The notes beneath the pieces were generated by a model. The model was not told the origin of the DNA, did no database searches, and saw nothing but the letters and a program-made list of their open reading frames with translations. Below are positions 4,808 through 42,615 of a stretch of DNA of 64,000 nucleotides, in pieces (position 1 is the stretch's first letter; each line of letters begins with the position of its first letter). Source of the stretch: Candidatus Babelota bacterium. Lineage in GTDB: Bacteria > Babelota > Babeliae > Babelales > RVW-14. The stretch spans positions 168,642 to 232,641 of the forward strand of contig JAFEAY010000003.1 of assembly GCA_018266175.1 (NCBI GenBank), written 5' to 3'. Made by a program: the position numbers and the translations under genes.

Positions 4808-6064
4808 TTACCACTTTCCACGCAATAAATCTTGCAGGTAAAGACAATGTTCTTCGTGTGCTTGTAAGATAGCAGCGTCATGATTTTGAAACTCATGACA
4901 ATACTGACAGTATAAAATAACATTATTGTTACTGTTATTATTTGAGGCAACTGTTTGATTATCAACTCTGGTATCAATATTACAACTTACTAATGGAGCA
5001 ACATCACACAACAAAGTCCTTTGGCCGGGTACTAACGGTTTTTGATGCGATTGGTAGGGTAGCGGTTGTGATTGAAAACTTTGAGTCGGATAATGTCGTG
5101 GTTGATAATATTGATTTTGGTTATTTTGTTGATCAAATTCCTGAAACTGCATAACGGGATAACGAGTCGGCACTTGATGGTAAACAAAAGGTACTCCTTG
5201 CTCGGGTAAAACATACACAGCAGGAGCATTAATCGACAGATGAATATTAATATTATTATTTATATTGTTAAAAGTTGGCACACCGAAAGGTTGCTCATTA
5301 TCAGAACTATTACAGACCTCAGGCACAGAATCGCTATTGGATCCTTGCCGAGACAAACATAATTTTTTATGATTTTTTAAATATTTTTTTTCGGGATAGA
5401 TAAAATTTTTACAATACTGACAATAAATTTCATGCTCAGAATTCGAAGCGATTATGCAATGCTCAATAAAGTCCTTGATTGATTCAAACTGAGGCAAGCT
5501 TGGACACTTTAAACAAATGTAATGCTTAGTCACTAGATGACTTTTCAGTGAATTCATACTGATAAATTTGTTACTTTTTCGATTACAATCTTTACCGCAG
5601 AATGGACATTTCAAATCCTTTGGAAATAATTGATCTCTTCTCAATGAATATTTCTTTCGCTCAAGCCTGATGAGGCAATTACGTTCATGAGTTGCTAAAT
5701 TATGAGGACATTTTGTCACATGATTTTCACAATACTGGCAAAAAGTACGCTCGTGCTGCATATCTTTGCAATGCTGTACAAGCTGGGCACGTGAAGCAAA
5801 TGGCCCTAAATCGGGACAATACCAGCAAACGTTATGCTGCGTCATCAAATGAGATCTTAAATTCAATTCATGAGTAAAAGGCTCATGATTCCTATCGCAA
5901 TTTGTAAACGAGCAGCATAAGTCGTCTAAATCACTGTGAAGAACCCTCTTCGCTTCTGGTTGTTCAAATTGATCATTATTTGTTCTTTTCATTGAAAAAA
6001 GTGATGAAAAACCAAGTAACATGAGAGAAAAAGAGAGTAATTTGATGACATCATGAGTTTTCAT
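4808..6064 (-). CDS. Exported multi-zinc-finger protein, family member 1 (C-x2-C-x13-H-x3-C units, Q/N-rich linker)
   Basis: Start set at the ATG at 6064 (GGAGG 4 nt upstream, identical to paralogue 6178-6837) rather than the track start at 6106. Signal-peptide-like MKTHDVIKLLSFSLMLLGFSSLFS. Fingers include CQYCENHVTKCPHNLATHERNC, CQYCKNFIYPEKKYLKNHKKLC, CQYCHEFQNHDAAILQAHEEHC and several CxxC...H...H units. Confidence 0.75.
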   Translation of the reverse strand: MKTHDVIKLLSFSLMLLGFSSLFSMKRTNNDQFEQPEAKRVLHSDLDDLCCSFTNCDRNHEPFTHELNLRSHLMTQHNVCWYCPDLGPFASRAQLVQHCKDMQHERTFCQYCENHVTKCPHNLATHERNCLIRLERKKYSLRRDQLFPKDLKCPFCGKDCNRKSNKFISMNSLKSHLVTKHYICLKCPSLPQFESIKDFIEHCIIASNSEHEIYCQYCKNFIYPEKKYLKNHKKLCLSRQGSNSDSVPEVCNSSDNEQPFGVPTFNNINNNINIHLSINAPAVYVLPEQGVPFVYHQVPTRYPVMQFQEFDQQNNQNQYYQPRHYPTQSFQSQPLPYQSHQKPLVPGQRTLLCDVAPLVSCNIDTRVDNQTVASNNNSNNNVILYCQYCHEFQNHDAAILQAHEEHCLYLQDLLRGKW

Positions 6065-6177
6065 AAGACCTCCATTGCCTACATCCACTAAAACGAATCC
6101 AATCATTCAAGCTTGAAGCACAATAAACTTATTCCATTTTTTTCTTAACACCGATTATTCAATCAACTGAAGCGGTA

Positions 6178-6837
6178 TTACCAATTTCCGCGTGCTAAAT
6201 CTTGCAGGCAAAGACAATTGTCCTCATGCTCGTGTAAGGCTGCAACATCATACGTTGAAAAATCATCGCAATACTGGCAATACAAAATATTATTATTATT
6301 GTTATTGTTATTATTTGCGGGAACAACTTGGCTTTCAGTTCTAGCATTAGTGCTATAACTTGCCAATGGAGCAACACCACATGACAAAGTCACCTGAACT
6401 GGCTGTGGTTGATAATGAGGAACATTCATATAAATGTTATTATTCAAGTTATTATAAACATTCACCGTATGCGGTTGCATCTGGTGCATAATATTACTTA
6501 CTGAGTTCTGAATAGGATTAATAGACTTTACATATTTTTCCCAACAATGGGCTCTTAGTTGATCACGCGAAGCAAAAACCTCTAAATCGGGACAATATGG
6601 ACAAACATTGTGCTTAGATGCTAAGTGTAATTTCAACATATGATCACTAGGAAGCGGATTACTGCTATTTGGGCAGAAATCAAAAGGACAGCACAAATCC
6701 AGGTCGATTTGAATAACCTTCTTTGGTTGTGGCGCTTTAAATTGATCATTATTTGATCGCTTCATGGGCAACAGGAACGTAAAGCCAAGGAATATCGCAA
6801 AAAGAGATAATAATTTAATAACATCATGAGTTTTCAT
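6178..6837 (-). CDS. Exported zinc-finger protein, family member 2 (short paralogue)
   Basis: N-terminus MKTHDVIKLLSLFAIFLGFTFLLPMKRSNNDQF and C-terminus NNNNILYCQYCDDFSTYDVAALHEHEDNCLCLQDLARGNW align with member 1. GGAGG lies before the ATG. Confidence 0.75.
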   Translation of the reverse strand: MKTHDVIKLLSLFAIFLGFTFLLPMKRSNNDQFKAPQPKKVIQIDLDLCCPFDFCPNSSNPLPSDHMLKLHLASKHNVCPYCPDLEVFASRDQLRAHCWEKYVKSINPIQNSVSNIMHQMQPHTVNVYNNLNNNIYMNVPHYQPQPVQVTLSCGVAPLASYSTNARTESQVVPANNNNNNNNNILYCQYCDDFSTYDVAALHEHEDNCLCLQDLARGNW

Positions 6838-7032: not shown

Positions 7033-7671
7033 TTATTCTTCATGAACAAAGTCTTGCAAAAAAGAGCAGATTTCTTCGTGTTCCCTGAATATATCAACAT
7101 CCTGAGCTTCAAAAAGACGACAATACTTACAACACAAAAGAATATCATCACAACTGTCATGACTGCCATCATCATAATTTAATGAATTACATACATGCAA
7201 TTCAGCTCGAGTAGTCGTTATGAATGGGCACTTACTACAAATAAAAATACCATGTTCAGCGTGGCTCCTTTGAACATGGATTATAAAACGAGTTCTATCA
7301 TCTCTGATTGAAACCTTACCAAATGAAGGAATCGTGCACCAAGGACATTTTAAATGCATATGTATTGAATGGTCCCATGCCTTTTCTTTTATGCTGAAAC
7401 CGATACGGCAAGCCTCACACACAGCATCACTCAGTCGAAATTCTAGAAATGGCTGCTGATTATTATTGTATGCACTCGAAGCATAATGAATTTGAGCGTG
7501 ATGCAAAGGCATCTGACAGTAAGTAACAGATTTCTTAAATGCCAATTTCTTTACCGATTGTTCTAATAATGATTGATACGATCCGTTCATGGTAAAAACC
7601 GGCGCAAAGCCGATTAAACAACCAGATATTGATAACAATGTAACAACACAATTCATTAGATCCCTATGCAC
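7033..7671 (-). CDS. Exported zinc-finger protein, family member 3
   Basis: Signal-peptide-like MNCVVTLLSISGCLIGFAPVFT. CxxC/H motifs include CEACRIG...HSIHMH, CPWC...HVQRSH and CSKC. The C-terminal finger LLCCKYCRLFEAQDVDIFREHEEICSFLQDF is homologous to members 1 and 2. An alternative ATG at 7656 overlaps the upstream stop as TAATG. Confidence 0.7.
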   Translation of the reverse strand: MHRDLMNCVVTLLSISGCLIGFAPVFTMNGSYQSLLEQSVKKLAFKKSVTYCQMPLHHAQIHYASSAYNNNQQPFLEFRLSDAVCEACRIGFSIKEKAWDHSIHMHLKCPWCTIPSFGKVSIRDDRTRFIIHVQRSHAEHGIFICSKCPFITTTRAELHVCNSLNYDDGSHDSCDDILLCCKYCRLFEAQDVDIFREHEEICSFLQDFVHEE

Positions 7672-9071: not shown

Positions 9072-10784
9072 CTATTCACACTTGTTCAAATCAGCGGCTC
9101 GTGCAAGCACCGCTTCAAGCGTCAACCCAAACTCTTGAGTGCCATCAGCAAGACGCAAAGTCACAGTATTTTGTTCTTGCTCTTTTTTTCCAAGAACAAT
9201 CATCCACGGAACTTTGTCCACTTGTGCACGGCGAATTTGTGCGGAAATCTGATCGCCTGTTTCGTCAAGCTCCATACGCAGCCCCGCAGCGGTAATTTGG
9301 TCTGCTACACGGCGTGAATAATCGGCCTGGTGATCGGTAATTTTGAGCACACGTACTTGGACCGGAGCCAACCAGAAGGGCAGATGCCCTTTAAAATGCT
9401 CAAGCAAAATTCCCAAAAAGCGCTCAATTGATCCATAAATTGCAACGTGCATAATGACTGGACGTTTACGCGATTGATCAGCATCAATATACTCAAGCTT
9501 GAAATTTTCCGGTTGAATAAAGTCAATTTGACAGGTTCCACATTGCCACTCACGTCCCATTGCATCAAGAATTTTGATATCAATTTTGGGACCATAAAAA
9601 GCTCCACCGCCCTCATCAACTTCGTATGCAATTCCCATTTCTTCAAAAGTGTTACGCAACACTGCTGTTGCTTTTTCCCAAACCTCTGAACCGCTCCCCA
9701 TCGACTTTTCTGGGCGAGTCGATAAAAAGTACTTAATAGAGCTGAATCCAAATTTCTTGTATATTTTATCAACACGTTCAAGAACCAATTTTACCGCATC
9801 GCCAATTTGATCAACAGTACAAAAAGTATGTGAATCATCTTGTGTAAAGCCACGCACTCTAAATAAACCATGGAGTACACCAGAAAGCTCACGACGATGC
9901 ACAAAGCCAAACTCTGCAAGGCGAAGTGGAAGTTCTTTGTATGAACGAGGCCGCTCTTGATAATGCAAAATTGCCCCGGGACAGTTCATCGGCTTAACAC
10001 AAAACGGGACGTCTTCGGTACTGGTGAAAAACATATTTTCACGATAGTTATCATAATGACCCGAAGTATGCCAGAGCGATTCATTCAAGATAAAAGGAGT
10101 TTTAATCTCTTGATACAGTGAACCACGAAGCTTACGCATCAAATCAATAAGTTTATGATAGACAATCAAACCCTTGTGATGAAAAAATGGAACACCGGGA
10201 GAAACATCGTGAAATGAGAAGAGTTCAAGTTGTTTACCAAGCTTGCGATGGTCATACAACTCAGCCTCTTCAATACGCTTAAAATAAGCGTCCATTGCTT
10301 CTTGAGTTTCAAATGCGACTCCACTGATACGCTGCAGCGCGATACCGTCGCGATTTGCTCGCCAGTATGAACCGGAAATTGCAGTCAGTTTAAAAAACTT
10401 AATTTCACCGATTGCATCAACATGACCACCTTTACAGAGGTCATAAAAATCGCCTTGATGATAAACACCAACGGTTTCATCAGCAATACCATCAATCAAT
10501 TCAAGTTTGAATTGATTATCTTTAAACATCGGCCGAGCCTGGTCTTTAGGAATTTGACCGCCAGTAATTTTGTAATTTTTCTTGGCAAGCTCGCGCATTC
10601 GTTTTTCGATAACAGTCAAGTCATCTTCTTTAAAATTTTTTAACGGTAAAAAGTCATAAAAAAAACCGTACTCGGTCACCGGACCGATAGTAAGCTTTGT
10701 TCCTGGAAACAACCCCAGAACCGCTTGTGCAAGCAAATGCGCTGCAGAATGGCGCAGATTGTGCAAATAATTATTATCGTTCAC
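9072..10784 (-). CDS. thrS: Threonine--tRNA ligase (no N-terminal TGS domain; editing HxxxH retained)
   Basis: RHSAAHLLAQAV and DLCKGGHV (editing-domain Zn motifs) plus class II core blocks (FRVRGFTQDDSHTF, GGGAFYGPKIDI) and a C-terminal anticodon-binding domain. GTG start at 10784. Confidence 0.95.
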   Translation of the reverse strand: MNDNNYLHNLRHSAAHLLAQAVLGLFPGTKLTIGPVTEYGFFYDFLPLKNFKEDDLTVIEKRMRELAKKNYKITGGQIPKDQARPMFKDNQFKLELIDGIADETVGVYHQGDFYDLCKGGHVDAIGEIKFFKLTAISGSYWRANRDGIALQRISGVAFETQEAMDAYFKRIEEAELYDHRKLGKQLELFSFHDVSPGVPFFHHKGLIVYHKLIDLMRKLRGSLYQEIKTPFILNESLWHTSGHYDNYRENMFFTSTEDVPFCVKPMNCPGAILHYQERPRSYKELPLRLAEFGFVHRRELSGVLHGLFRVRGFTQDDSHTFCTVDQIGDAVKLVLERVDKIYKKFGFSSIKYFLSTRPEKSMGSGSEVWEKATAVLRNTFEEMGIAYEVDEGGGAFYGPKIDIKILDAMGREWQCGTCQIDFIQPENFKLEYIDADQSRKRPVIMHVAIYGSIERFLGILLEHFKGHLPFWLAPVQVRVLKITDHQADYSRRVADQITAAGLRMELDETGDQISAQIRRAQVDKVPWMIVLGKKEQEQNTVTLRLADGTQEFGLTLEAVLARAADLNKCE

Positions 10785-10890
10785 GATTAATCCTTTCAGT
10801 AAACTCAGCCAAACTATAGCAGAGTCGTGAAAATTTTATACCCCACTGCTCTTTTGCAGGAGAGAAACATACATAAAAATAATTGGTTGA

Positions 10891-10918
10891 GAATAAAAAG
10901 ATACTGCCCTTAGGCAGT
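10891..10918 (-). terminator. Intrinsic-terminator-like hairpin overlapping the end of the Thr-rich leader ORF (putative attenuator)
   Basis: The minus-strand RNA is ACUGCC-UAAG-GGCAGU followed by AUCUUUUUAUU. The 5' arm is the last Thr and Ala codons of the leader ORF, and the stop codon lies in the loop. Confidence 0.45.
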
Positions 10919-11020
10919 CGTAGTCGTGATTATCGAAGAAATGGTCGTTGCAATCATGCAACGCATAAGGAATTGAGCATCACACTCACGTGCAGATAAT
11001 TTGAAGCAGAGCGCGTTCAT
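10910..11020 (-). CDS. Putative thrS leader peptide (36 aa, Thr/Ile/Ser-rich C-terminus)
   Basis: ATG at 11020 is preceded by AGGA 4 nt upstream. It translates to MNALCFKLSARECDAQFLMRCMIATTISSIITTTTA*, with Thr codons ACG ACC ... ACG ACT ACG ACT. It lies 125 nt upstream of the thrS start and is below the ORF-track size cut-off. Confidence 0.45.
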   Translation of the reverse strand: MNALCFKLSARECDAQFLMRCMIATTISSIITTTTA

Positions 11021-11194
11021 AACATCCTTAGTTAAACGCCATTGTATAGGTCAACTAACAATCTTATTATATAAAATTCGAGCACAAAGAGCAAAAACTA
11101 TTCAAATGTGTCCTCTAAATAGAGACCTGCCTAATTTAAAAAAAGAATCTCTCCTTATTTAAATCATTCAATTTTCAACATAATTAATACAATA

Positions 11195-11222
11195 TTGACA
11201 GATTGAATATTTATGATAGATT
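11195..11222 (+). promoter_or_regulatory. Sigma70-type promoter of zinc-finger member 4
   Basis: TTGACAgattgaatatttatgaTAGATT. The -35 and first 14 spacer nt are nearly identical to the member-2 promoter. Confidence 0.5.
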
Positions 11223-11262
11223 GATATGAAACTGTATTTTAAATGAAAAAAGCGGGGTTCTC

Positions 11263-12801
<1,539 letters not shown>

Positions 12802-41685: not shown

Positions 41686-41720
41686 ATTCAAAAAGGGTCG
41701 GCAGCAATGTCGGCCCTTTT
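41686..41720 (+). terminator. Rho-independent terminator of OMP1; copy 1 of a duplicated 34-nt sequence
   Basis: attcaaaaagggtcggcagcaatgtcggcccttttt forms a hairpin with G-U pairs followed by a T-run. It is repeated at 42576-42615. Confidence 0.65.
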
Positions 41721-41794
41721 TCTTTTGGTTAGGAAAACCTACAAATCACTCTCCCGCGCTCCTATTTGGCAAAGCGCTCCTATTTGGCAAAGCA

Positions 41795-42575: not shown

Positions 42576-42615
42576 TATTCAAAAGGGTCGGCAGCAATGT
42601 CGGCCCTTTTGAATA
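42576..42615 (+). terminator. Copy 2 of the duplicated terminator, downstream of the TA cassette
   Basis: tattcaaaagggtcggcagcaatgtcggcccttttgaata differs from copy 1 by one A in the A-run over the shared 34 nt. Confidence 0.6.

Follow-up and report, generated by a model that had tools for sequence, protein, structure and literature searches.

A conserved threonine-codon leader upstream of thrS in Dependentiae, a probable cis-acting regulator built around a single stop-containing hairpin

RESULTS

A Thr-codon-rich ORF lies directly upstream of thrS and ends inside a hairpin

The window, the whole 64,000-nt stretch of DNA analysed here, comes from a Candidatus Babelota bacterium of the phylum Dependentiae (assembly GCA_018266175.1, contig JAFEAY010000003.1, positions 168,642 to 232,641), and the element in question is a short open reading frame (ORF) rich in Thr codons that precedes its threonine-tRNA ligase gene, thrS. 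The gene occupies 9072..10784 on the minus strand, which also carries every leader and promoter feature of the window described below; it begins with GTG and encodes a 570-aa threonyl-tRNA synthetase (ThrRS; Pfam PF00587, PF03129 and PF07973) that is 100% identical to the NCBI protein threonine--tRNA ligase [Candidatus Dependentiae bacterium]. Its Shine-Dalgarno (SD) sequence, GAAAGGA (10791..10797), is conserved as GAA[A/G]GG[A/G]. By Pfam, the enzyme contains the tRNA_SAD, class II core and anticodon-binding domains, and a TGS domain was not detected; the ThrRS proteins of Dependentiae relatives are likewise about 570 aa long, without the N-terminal TGS domain of Escherichia coli ThrRS. Repression by E. 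coli ThrRS is mediated by its N-terminal region.

The leader ORF, found by direct reading and in the ORF listing, spans 10910..11020 and contains 36 codons plus a TAA stop (peptide MNALCFKLSARECDAQFLMRCMIATTISSIITTTTA). The SD sequence AAGGA (11025..11029) precedes its ATG with a 4-nt spacer, and its stop codon is separated from the thrS GTG (10784) by 125 nt. The final 14 codons read GCA ACG ACC ATT TCT TCG ATA ATC ACG ACT ACG ACT GCC TAA, and Thr accounts for six of the 12 terminal sense codons. In this Thr-codon run (10916..10948), Thr is found at codons -12, -11, -5, -4, -3 and -2 from the stop, with Ile and Ser in between.

A hairpin, here called T1 (ACTGCC-TAAG-GGCAGT, 10903..10918, -9.0 kcal/mol), has the final two sense codons, ACT GCC, as its 5′ arm, and the TAA stop (10912..10910) makes up positions 1-3 of its loop. 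A U-rich tail, ATCTTTTTATT (10892..10902), follows directly. A second hairpin, CGTTGCA-TGAT-TGCAACG (10946..10963, -8.7 kcal/mol), lies further upstream within the ORF. The initial annotation had described this anatomy (a 36-codon ORF with an SD sequence, six Thr in the last 12 codons, a stop codon in the loop, a U-rich tail, a second hairpin and 125 nt to thrS), and every one of these features is present in the sequence.

This arrangement exceeds chance. A six-frame listing of the window gives 1011 ORFs of 20 aa or more, and the leader alone has five or more Thr in its last 12 codons; the runners-up are seven ORFs with four, and Thr makes up 5.5% of codons in the window's long ORFs. The single Thr-rich ORF of the window therefore adjoins its single Thr-specific synthetase gene. 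A terminator-pattern scan found three sites in this 1 kb, compared to 0.5 +/- 0.6 in shuffled sequences, with T1 and the upstream in-ORF hairpin both flagged. In the search upstream of the window's long ORFs, no other cognate-codon leader came up. One further candidate, an Ile/Thr-rich small ORF (…QIITITIIIIF…) at 6180-6310 on the minus strand, upstream of ORF 4808-6106, was rejected as a second leader; it is an alternative frame of a poly-Asn (AAT/AAC) stretch in ORF 6178-6837.

The leader is conserved as a reading frame in close relatives

Orthologues were collected by a genome scan with ThrRS and by a protein search for ThrRS orthologues of graded identity, and the contigs upstream of thrS were compared. 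From the genome scan came a single close relative, L001, at 84% identity, together with two Dependentiae at 65-67%. Every orthologue at least 84% identical to the window ThrRS has a homologous module upstream of thrS, and seven distinct leaders were obtained, comprising the window's own and six versions at 84-94% ThrRS identity. The peptides of these six are MNAFCLKLSPCKYSAQFLMSCMITTISTTITTTTA (L081/L087), MNAPFSNSSLMCLKQFQLLNQFYAHETTLTTTLTTTTA (L083/L088, with C for Y in L088), MNAPFQKSNLMYSKSSQLLSQFCAHDTMLTTTLTTTTA (L084), MFLFSSAMQGSAISLVSDISYSSLMQTTTTPTTITTA (L085), MVAQYLTSTFIFSVTTTSLTITTA (L001) and, as the seventh version, MNAPLLNVNLICFKQSQLLNQSYAHGATLTITLTTTTA (L096). The module is absent from L086, whose ThrRS is 82% identical, and from L090, L091, L092, L002 and L003 (65-71%).

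All seven leaders finish with T-x-T-T-A-stop, written as ACT GCC plus a stop codon within ACTGCC-N4-GGCAG and followed by a U-rich tail. Their C-termini are ATTISSIITTTTA (window), MITTISTTITTTTA (L081/L087), HETTLTTTLTTTTA (L083/L088), HGATLTITLTTTTA (L096), HDTMLTTTLTTTTA (L084), MQTTTTPTTITTA (L085) and VTTTSLTITTA (L001). The ATG and an SD-like purine block before it are kept in 7/7 versions, and the distance from leader to thrS GTG varies only from 109 to 125 nt. The leaders range from 24 to 38 codons, and their N-terminal parts cannot be aligned between subgroups. Each leader has six to nine Thr in its last 12 codons and none in the other 23-26 codons (L001: 2/12). By position, every leader has Thr at -5, -3 and -2, 5/7 have it at -4, and four or five of the seven have it at -12, -11, -9, -8 and -7.

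The pattern of substitution is that of a coding sequence. In codons -7 to -3, which lie outside the T1 stem, pairs of leaders differ on average by 0.22 at first, 0.21 at second and 0.65 at third codon positions, and the invariant Thr at -3 is written ACG, ACA or ACC. Variation concentrated at third positions, Thr codons exchanged for synonyms and a stop codon always kept in the loop are what one would expect of a translated frame with Thr codons under selection. The SD sequence, the start codon, the conserved frame and the codon-periodic conservation together are the grounds on which we infer translation of the ORF. ACG is the rarest Thr codon, at 17% of those used in genes, but accounts for 21/52 of the Thr codons in the leaders, a count that includes leaders of shared ancestry. 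The initial annotation had let its interpretation stand or fall with the persistence of the ORF and its Thr run in relatives; all seven leaders keep the start codon, the SD sequence, the Thr run, the in-loop stop and the hairpin.

The module's association with thrS is exclusive. The upstream neighbour varies by locus (a zinc-finger-like ORF, a 292-aa ORF, a nucleotidyltransferase pair or a PhoH-like gene), and thrS is constant. A metagenome-wide search with the 24-nt motif ACNAYNACNACTGCCTARNGGCAG returned five loci, one of them a true module that lies upstream of thrS (L096); the other four were rejected as chance matches, located in GC-rich coding DNA without a downstream U tract. An exact look-up of the seven leader peptides in a collection of 15 billion proteins returned no match as a called protein.

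Thr-rich short ORFs precede thrS in unrelated phyla

We surveyed 500 nt upstream of thrS in 80 genome loci for Thr-rich short ORFs. Two Acidobacteria have such leaders, L067 (2670-2805, MSRTTATLTRTTDMFPPCR) and L018 (2669-2799, MRDLTSTRQTRTTETPPPCR); in both, a strong terminator is accompanied by a complementary antiterminator segment. Others were found in Dehalococcoidia, in L041 (2763-2924) and L072 (MQRAAATTTTTTRTTRAAAARVRETAAVA, MQRAAATTTTTTRTT...), together with a terminator, and in the Bdellovibrionia locus L016 (2749-2818, MRANRTTTFTTSSAC), where the stop codon is 4 nt before the thrS AUG and within a small hairpin. Under a stricter definition limited to 400 nt upstream, Thr-rich short ORFs occur in 6/77 thrS windows and in 16/2429 controls (Fisher p = 3.5e-5); when the same test was applied to other amino acids, none was as strongly enriched.

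Folding calculations on L067 indicate that a ribosome positioned on the stop codon would make the RNA give up the antiterminator GCCCUGUCG/CGACAGGGC and fold into the terminator ACAGGGCC/GGCCCUGU, and by this modelling L067 is a textbook attenuator with a homeostatic sign. All these leaders share with the Dependentiae leader a run of Thr codons in a short ORF directly upstream of thrS, but their sequences are unrelated to it and GC-rich. Their architecture differs as well: the acidobacterial leaders have the classical build, in which segment 2 precedes the stop codon and a strong terminator lies beside thrS, and L016 has no terminator at all. Judging from these sequences, the Thr leaders of the different phyla look like independent inventions rather than homologues.

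A candidate promoter precedes the leader, and a second may lie between T1 and thrS

A candidate promoter, P1, was found upstream of the leader by direct reading. It consists of a -35 element, TTGCTC (11089..11094), and, 17 nt after it, a perfect -10 box, TATAAT (11066..11071). TTGCTN, the 17-nt spacer and a -10 box occur at the same place in all leader-bearing relatives, the aligned -10 versions being TATAAT, TATACT, TAAACT and TAGTTT. Transcription is predicted to start at about 11059, some 39 nt before the leader ATG. A simple promoter scan missed P1 because only the TTG of its -35 element fits TTGACA. A possible proximal thrS promoter, P2, is marked by the -10 box TATAAA (10835..10840) between T1 and thrS; the box aligns with TGTATAAT in the leaderless L086 and with TATAAA, TATGCT or TATAGT in leader-bearing relatives. 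P2 has no -35 box and was not flagged by the promoter scan.

These elements raise the alternative that P1, the ORF and T1 are an independent small gene, a self-contained unit encoding a Thr-rich peptide or a small RNA, with thrS transcribed from its own promoter past T1. A full promoter-SD-ORF-terminator unit is indeed present, the possible proximal -10 box is homologous to the likely promoter of L086, and within a single narrow clade the linkage to thrS could be inherited synteny. Such a gene would, however, encode a peptide that is unconserved outside its Thr run and whose length varies between 24 and 38 aa, and its dominant residue would happen to be the amino acid of the adjacent synthetase. 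The unit also stays with thrS despite its changing upstream neighbours, its motif was found nowhere else in the metagenome scan, and similar Thr-rich ORFs precede thrS in unrelated phyla. We therefore consider an independent gene improbable.

T1 is an invariant hairpin with the features of a weak terminator

The T1 stem is unchanged in 7/7 versions, apart from the loss of the outer pair in L085. Its loop varies (TAAG, TAGC or TAAA), and the stop codon is kept every time. In calculated nascent-RNA ensembles, T1 forms with a pairing probability of at least 0.98. The tail after T1 is U-rich in every relative, with the U run beginning 2-5 nt past the stem; because of this offset, T1 would be a weak or imperfect intrinsic terminator, or a pause signal. 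Its weakness would suit a conditional signal. The intrinsic terminator of the initial annotation thus retains its hairpin and its U-rich tail, both of them conserved, and is reduced to a weak candidate by its 6-bp stem and displaced U run.

The upstream in-ORF hairpin is less constant. Hairpins are found in or near the Thr run of relatives at other positions and with other sequences (GTTAAC-N6-GTTRAC in L083, L084 and L096; AACGAC-GAC-GTCGTT in L001), and L085 has no corresponding hairpin. It may be a pause element. Downstream of T1 is a G-poor, pyrimidine-rich spacer (10841..10902) with a small hairpin, H2, at its end (CTCCTGC...GCAGTGGGG, 10862..10841); relatives have H2-like hairpins of differing sequence. 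Folding places another hairpin, H3, just upstream of the thrS SD sequence (motif ACTCTGCTATAGTTTGGCTGAGT, 10803..10825). The motif TTGCTAT(A/G)NTTTGGC is found in the leader-bearing relatives and also in L086 (about 2455-2480), and because this relative is leaderless, H3 is to be counted as part of the thrS 5′ UTR and not of the leader module.

No known RNA family and no conserved alternative structure were detected

We compared the region with known families of regulatory RNA. A search with cmscan of 10500-11500 at E <= 10 returned no match to the T-box or to Thr_leader (RF00506), only four chance-level hits to unrelated families, and the whole window gave 0 hits at Rfam gathering thresholds. 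T1 has a tetraloop (UAAG, UAGC or UAAA) and is therefore no mimic of the tRNA-Thr anticodon arm, unlike the E. coli thrS operator, whose hairpins beside the ribosome-binding site have 7-nt loops with xGU. H3, located next to the thrS SD sequence, has a 9-nt loop in which GU is not conserved (L086 has UAUGCUUUG), and it is not a convincing mimic of the tRNA-Thr anticodon either.

We folded six orthologues under a constraint that blocked one or the other arm of T1, and no conserved alternative pairing emerged. The pairings that did appear were weak and non-conserved; in L083 and L084, for example, GCAGUU in the 5′ UTR paired with the 5′ arm of T1, which costs 7-9 kcal/mol. We also considered T1 as a 1:2 hairpin followed by a later terminator, and rejected it, as no orthologue has a hairpin with U's between T1 and thrS. 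A classical four-segment attenuator is excluded because T1 has neither a competing structure nor a second terminator downstream. With no T-box or Thr_leader match and no antiterminator, the element is best described as a leader-peptide regulator of non-classical build.

A different use of these sequences would be translational attenuation, or an attenuator-derived RNA: the Thr codons flanking T1 and the U tract would pair with the start codon and SD sequence of thrS, in cis or in trans, and stalled ribosomes would free the ribosome-binding site (RBS). In the minimum-energy folds of four of six read-through transcripts, UCACGA, CUACGA or UCACAA pairs with UCGUGA, UCGUGG or UUGUGA at the thrS start, and the window and L081 folds also pair AUCUUUUU with GAAAGGAU. 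In the Bdellovibrionia locus L016, a hairpin whose 5′ arm is the end of the Thr-rich upstream ORF encloses the thrS AUG. Moreover, thrS starts with GTG in 7/7 leader-bearing loci (window, L001, L081, L083, L084, L085 and L096), in the context (A/C)T(C/T)GTG(G/A), and with ATG in 6/6 leaderless relatives examined (L002, L003, L086, L090, L091 and L092); this split can, however, be explained by one ancestral change. The pairing itself fared poorly in three calculations. The long-range helix between the T1-adjacent Thr codons and the thrS GTG, proposed by RNAalifold, was rejected, as its pair counts and covariation are not above those of shuffled sequences (values as high as those observed arose in 85-133 of 500 shuffles). 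Duplexes between the Thr run and the thrS RBS were likewise discarded, their energies being no better than those of dinucleotide shuffles (z -1.7 to +0.8). Release of the RBS by a stalled ribosome was not borne out either: modelled footprints leave the unpaired probability of the RBS unraised in five of six orthologues, with a modest rise in L081. Translational attenuation is accordingly the least probable of the alternatives we considered, and we regard it as very unlikely.

A ribosome waiting at the terminal Thr codons would occlude T1

Comparison of the seven versions makes it highly probable that the leader is a Thr-sensing peptide ORF that acts on thrS in cis. Our best full explanation, a cis-acting leader-peptide regulator of thrS in Dependentiae (TM6) with a homeostatic response, has a probability of about 0.6 in our estimation.

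According to this explanation, transcription would start from the putative promoter about 40 nt upstream of the ORF and produce a short mRNA leader. Ribosomes would translate the 36-codon ORF, with its last 12 codons serving as the Thr-codon sensor. The speed of decoding within the Thr run would set the position of the ribosome relative to T1, and this position would decide whether T1 forms behind RNA polymerase; the formation of T1 would in turn decide the share of transcripts that reaches thrS, 125 nt further on. In the preferred homeostatic version, when charged tRNA-Thr is scarce, the ribosome would wait at Thr codons -5 to -2 and cover the 5′ arm of T1, leaving T1 inactive and raising thrS expression. 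Co-transcription of the leader with thrS and termination at T1 are presumed here, and so, above all, is the direction of the response.

The ribosome's footprint extends about 12-13 nt 3′ of its A site. A ribosome sitting on T1 is likely to matter because, at the invariant Thr positions (-5, -3 and -2), its footprint would cover T1, and because codons -4 and -3 are free of any constraint from the stem. We also tentatively propose a minimal two-element amino acid sensor without an antiterminator, in which the sensor and stop codons lie inside a single hairpin and occupancy of the four terminal Thr codons is the whole switch, and which would be one of at least four independent inventions of a Thr leader for thrS (Dependentiae, Acidobacteria, Dehalococcoidia and Bdellovibrionia). 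This narrower proposal is possible, but clearly less probable than the full explanation.

Several observations weigh against occlusion as the mechanism, or limit how far the comparison can carry it. The leader-bearing genomes form one narrow clade, so the seven versions amount to few independent observations, and the invariant stem of T1 offers no covariation. At 6 bp and -8 to -9 kcal/mol, T1 is far weaker than the gene-end terminators of the same window, which have stems of 9-12 bp and energies of -12 to -22 kcal/mol. The lack of a conserved alternative pairing makes the logic of the classical attenuator unavailable. The possible P2, located downstream of T1, could leave thrS partly independent of the leader. 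There is also a difficulty of timing. The minimum spacing between the ribosomal P site and the active site of RNA polymerase is about 34 nt, as seen in expressome structures, and with this spacing the A site would have advanced to codon -5 at the furthest when the polymerase reaches the termination point. By the same geometric reasoning, a fast ribosome in the collided state would also block T1, and stalls at codons -12 to -7 would leave T1 free. The initial annotation had proposed an attenuator in which a stalled ribosome occludes the terminator arm and allows read-through into thrS; its Thr-rich translated leader, acting in cis through the ribosome, has gained comparative support, and its occlusion and read-through mechanism is plausible but burdened by timing and sign and by the lack of an antiterminator.

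The same timing would fit a coupling attenuator of the pyrBI type with the opposite sign, whereby a closely following ribosome stops T1 from folding, and scarcity of charged tRNA-Thr makes the ribosome lag, so that T1 folds and transcription terminates; thrS transcription from P1 would then increase the faster Thr codons are decoded. T1 lies within the translated region and lacks an antiterminator, as in pyrBI, and at a spacing of about 34 nt, codons -12 to -5 would be decoded while the polymerase makes T1 and the U tract, which matches the extent of the Thr run. Experiments in E. coli, in which stalling upstream of an intragenic intrinsic terminator raises termination (PMC5021804), point in this direction and count against occlusion. 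The consequence would nevertheless be positive feedback on an essential synthetase, with less charged tRNA-Thr leading to less ThrRS, which is physiologically perverse. A pure coupling sensor also requires no amino-acid-specific codons, and it would leave unexplained why Thr is conserved, with synonymous variation, at -4 and -3, codons that are read after the termination decision and are unconstrained by the stem. The acidobacterial thrS leader, as judged by folding, works with the homeostatic sign. We consider this alternative unlikely, though it is the most probable of the rivals.

A third possibility retains the homeostatic sign and relaxes the timing. In Rho-dependent attenuation of the tnaC or speFL type, the Thr run and the spacer would be a Rho loading site, T1 and the U tract would provide a pause, and a stalled ribosome would mask the site; stalls anywhere in the run would be tolerated, and the ribosome would stall beside the stop codon, as in tna. 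Across the seven versions, the Thr run (36 nt) and a 55-nt spacer contain 7-14% G and about 20-23% C, compared to a window mean of 20% G, and their G content is at or below the 5th percentile in most of the seven. The C-richness, however, follows automatically from ACN codons, and intergenic DNA at 40% GC is ordinarily U-rich. Moreover, a Rho loading site would not explain the invariant T1 stem or the stop codon in its loop. Rho-dependent attenuation appears improbable, about as much so as an independent small gene.

Within the class of Thr-sensing leaders that act in cis, occlusion of T1 with negative feedback carries the largest share of our confidence, short of half; loss of coupling carries roughly half as much, masking of a Rho site somewhat less, and other mechanisms the remainder.

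Genes and repeats around thrS

In the leaderless relative L092 (1-2499; GCA_020633995.1, ThrRS 69% identical), two amino-acid permease genes stand in tandem, and thrS starts 1 nt past the second. This arrangement suggests that an operon, instead of a leader, links Thr charging with amino-acid import.

Several ORFs flanking thrS in the window have no Pfam hits and share the Cys/His motif H..CPWCT..H....H.....C..C; they lie at 7033-7671 on the minus strand, 11263-12801 on the plus strand and, probably, 6178-6837 on the minus strand. Two of them match each other by BLASTP at E = 1e-6. Poly-Asn tracts are present in these ORFs as well, the one at about 12330-12375 being 14 Asn long. The 512-aa copy sits between a PhoH-like gene and thrS, two genes that adjoin directly in several relatives (L084, L090 and L091). 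From their sequences, these ORFs look like an expanding paralogous family of zinc-finger-like proteins. Elsewhere in the window, two copies of one GC-rich, terminator-like hairpin core, GGGTCGGCAGCAATGTCGGCCC, are separated by about 900 nt (41690-41721 and 42585-42606); one of them follows a 505-aa ORF and has its stem lengthened to 12 bp. The core may be a terminator that was duplicated, or else a small repeat element.

DISCUSSION

Significance of a Thr leader in Dependentiae

To our knowledge, only a few model bacteria have given a detailed picture of how aminoacyl-tRNA synthetase genes are controlled, namely through T-boxes, ThrRS autoregulation and pheST attenuation, and we know of essentially no gene regulation described in Dependentiae, an uncultured, host-dependent phylum. 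If the two-element sensor is real, it would be the first cis-regulatory RNA mechanism described for this candidate phylum, and bacteria outside Firmicutes and Enterobacteria would have, in leader peptides, a general alternative to both T-boxes and ThrRS autoregulation. Thr-rich ORFs before thrS in unrelated phyla suggest that leader control of synthetases is commoner than annotation shows, as none of these ORFs is called as a gene. The Dependentiae leader would be a compact natural test case in which the position of the ribosome alone sets termination, pausing or Rho access. Such leaders would also be useful as annotation markers for metagenome-assembled genomes and could serve as amino-acid-responsive parts.

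Comparison with known systems

Control of a synthetase operon by a leader peptide is classical for pheST, where the leader is pheM. The Dependentiae leader shares with the classical attenuators (E. coli trpL, hisL and thrL, and pheM-pheST) a short ORF, a run of cognate codons, a hairpin with a U tract and a peptide that is otherwise unconserved. Its mixture of Thr and Ile resembles E. coli thrL, and the placement of sensor codons in or just before a 5′ arm, with the stop codon in the loop, resembles the 1:2 hairpin of trpL. Unlike these attenuators, it has no antiterminator and no downstream terminator, and its sole U-followed hairpin holds the stop codon. The textbook four-segment mechanism is impossible here because the sensor and stop codons are inside the only hairpin and there is no antiterminator. 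The element also differs in having no match to Thr_leader in Rfam, in its target, which is thrS and not a biosynthetic operon, and in its phylum.

Leaders for synthetase genes have been proposed elsewhere. In Streptomyces lividans, the pairs thrL-thrS, alaL-alaS, trpL2-trpS and leuL2-leuS have been put forward (PMC8079986), attenuators of Streptomyces leuS have been proposed (PMC1262725), and in bacilli His leaders precede hisS paralogues (PMC2965389). The view in the initial annotation that leader-peptide attenuation is not known for thrS was therefore outdated, given the thrL-thrS proposal in S. lividans (PMC8079986). The two thrS leaders differ considerably. Streptomyces thrL has two Thr codons (MKRVRPFLETTPGFVPAR) and, according to its authors, no clear terminator (PMC8079986), whereas the last 12 codons of each Dependentiae leader include six to nine Thr, the hairpin with its U tail is conserved, and comparison among relatives supports the element; the two kinds of leader are unrelated in sequence.

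E. coli pyrBI (and pyrE) likewise has no antiterminator; there, the leader ORF contains or overlaps the terminator hairpin, and the ribosome is the anti-termination factor. In pyrBI, however, UTP is sensed through polymerase pausing, no specific codon run is involved and the ORF spans the whole terminator, unlike the Dependentiae ORF, which stops in the loop. Transferred to a Thr sensor, the pyrBI scheme also predicts that slow decoding leads to termination, a non-homeostatic sign. Actinobacterial ilvB leaders are similar in that runs of Ile, Val and Leu codons overlap candidate terminator hairpins with poly-U, and their mode of regulation has been called unclear (PMC1262725). For Corynebacterium glutamicum ilvB, a three-hairpin model of anti-antiterminator, antiterminator and terminator is supported by mutations (PMC11857589); unlike in C. 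glutamicum, no alternative hairpins are detectable in the Dependentiae leader.

The E. coli thrS operator and the Firmicute T-box act on the same gene and presumably for the same purpose, feedback on tRNA-Thr charging or on the level of ThrRS. The Dependentiae region differs from both in that it matches no Rfam family and has no 7-nt anticodon-like loop. Because the frame, the start codon, the SD sequence and the stop codon are conserved, the signal would be read by the ribosome rather than by a protein or a tRNA. The kind of regulator is therefore already known, and the Dependentiae module is new in its architecture (a single stop-containing hairpin without an antiterminator), in its phylum and in the strength of its comparative support. 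Set beside these systems, the leader is a well-supported, unannotated regulatory element of unusual build rather than a new principle.

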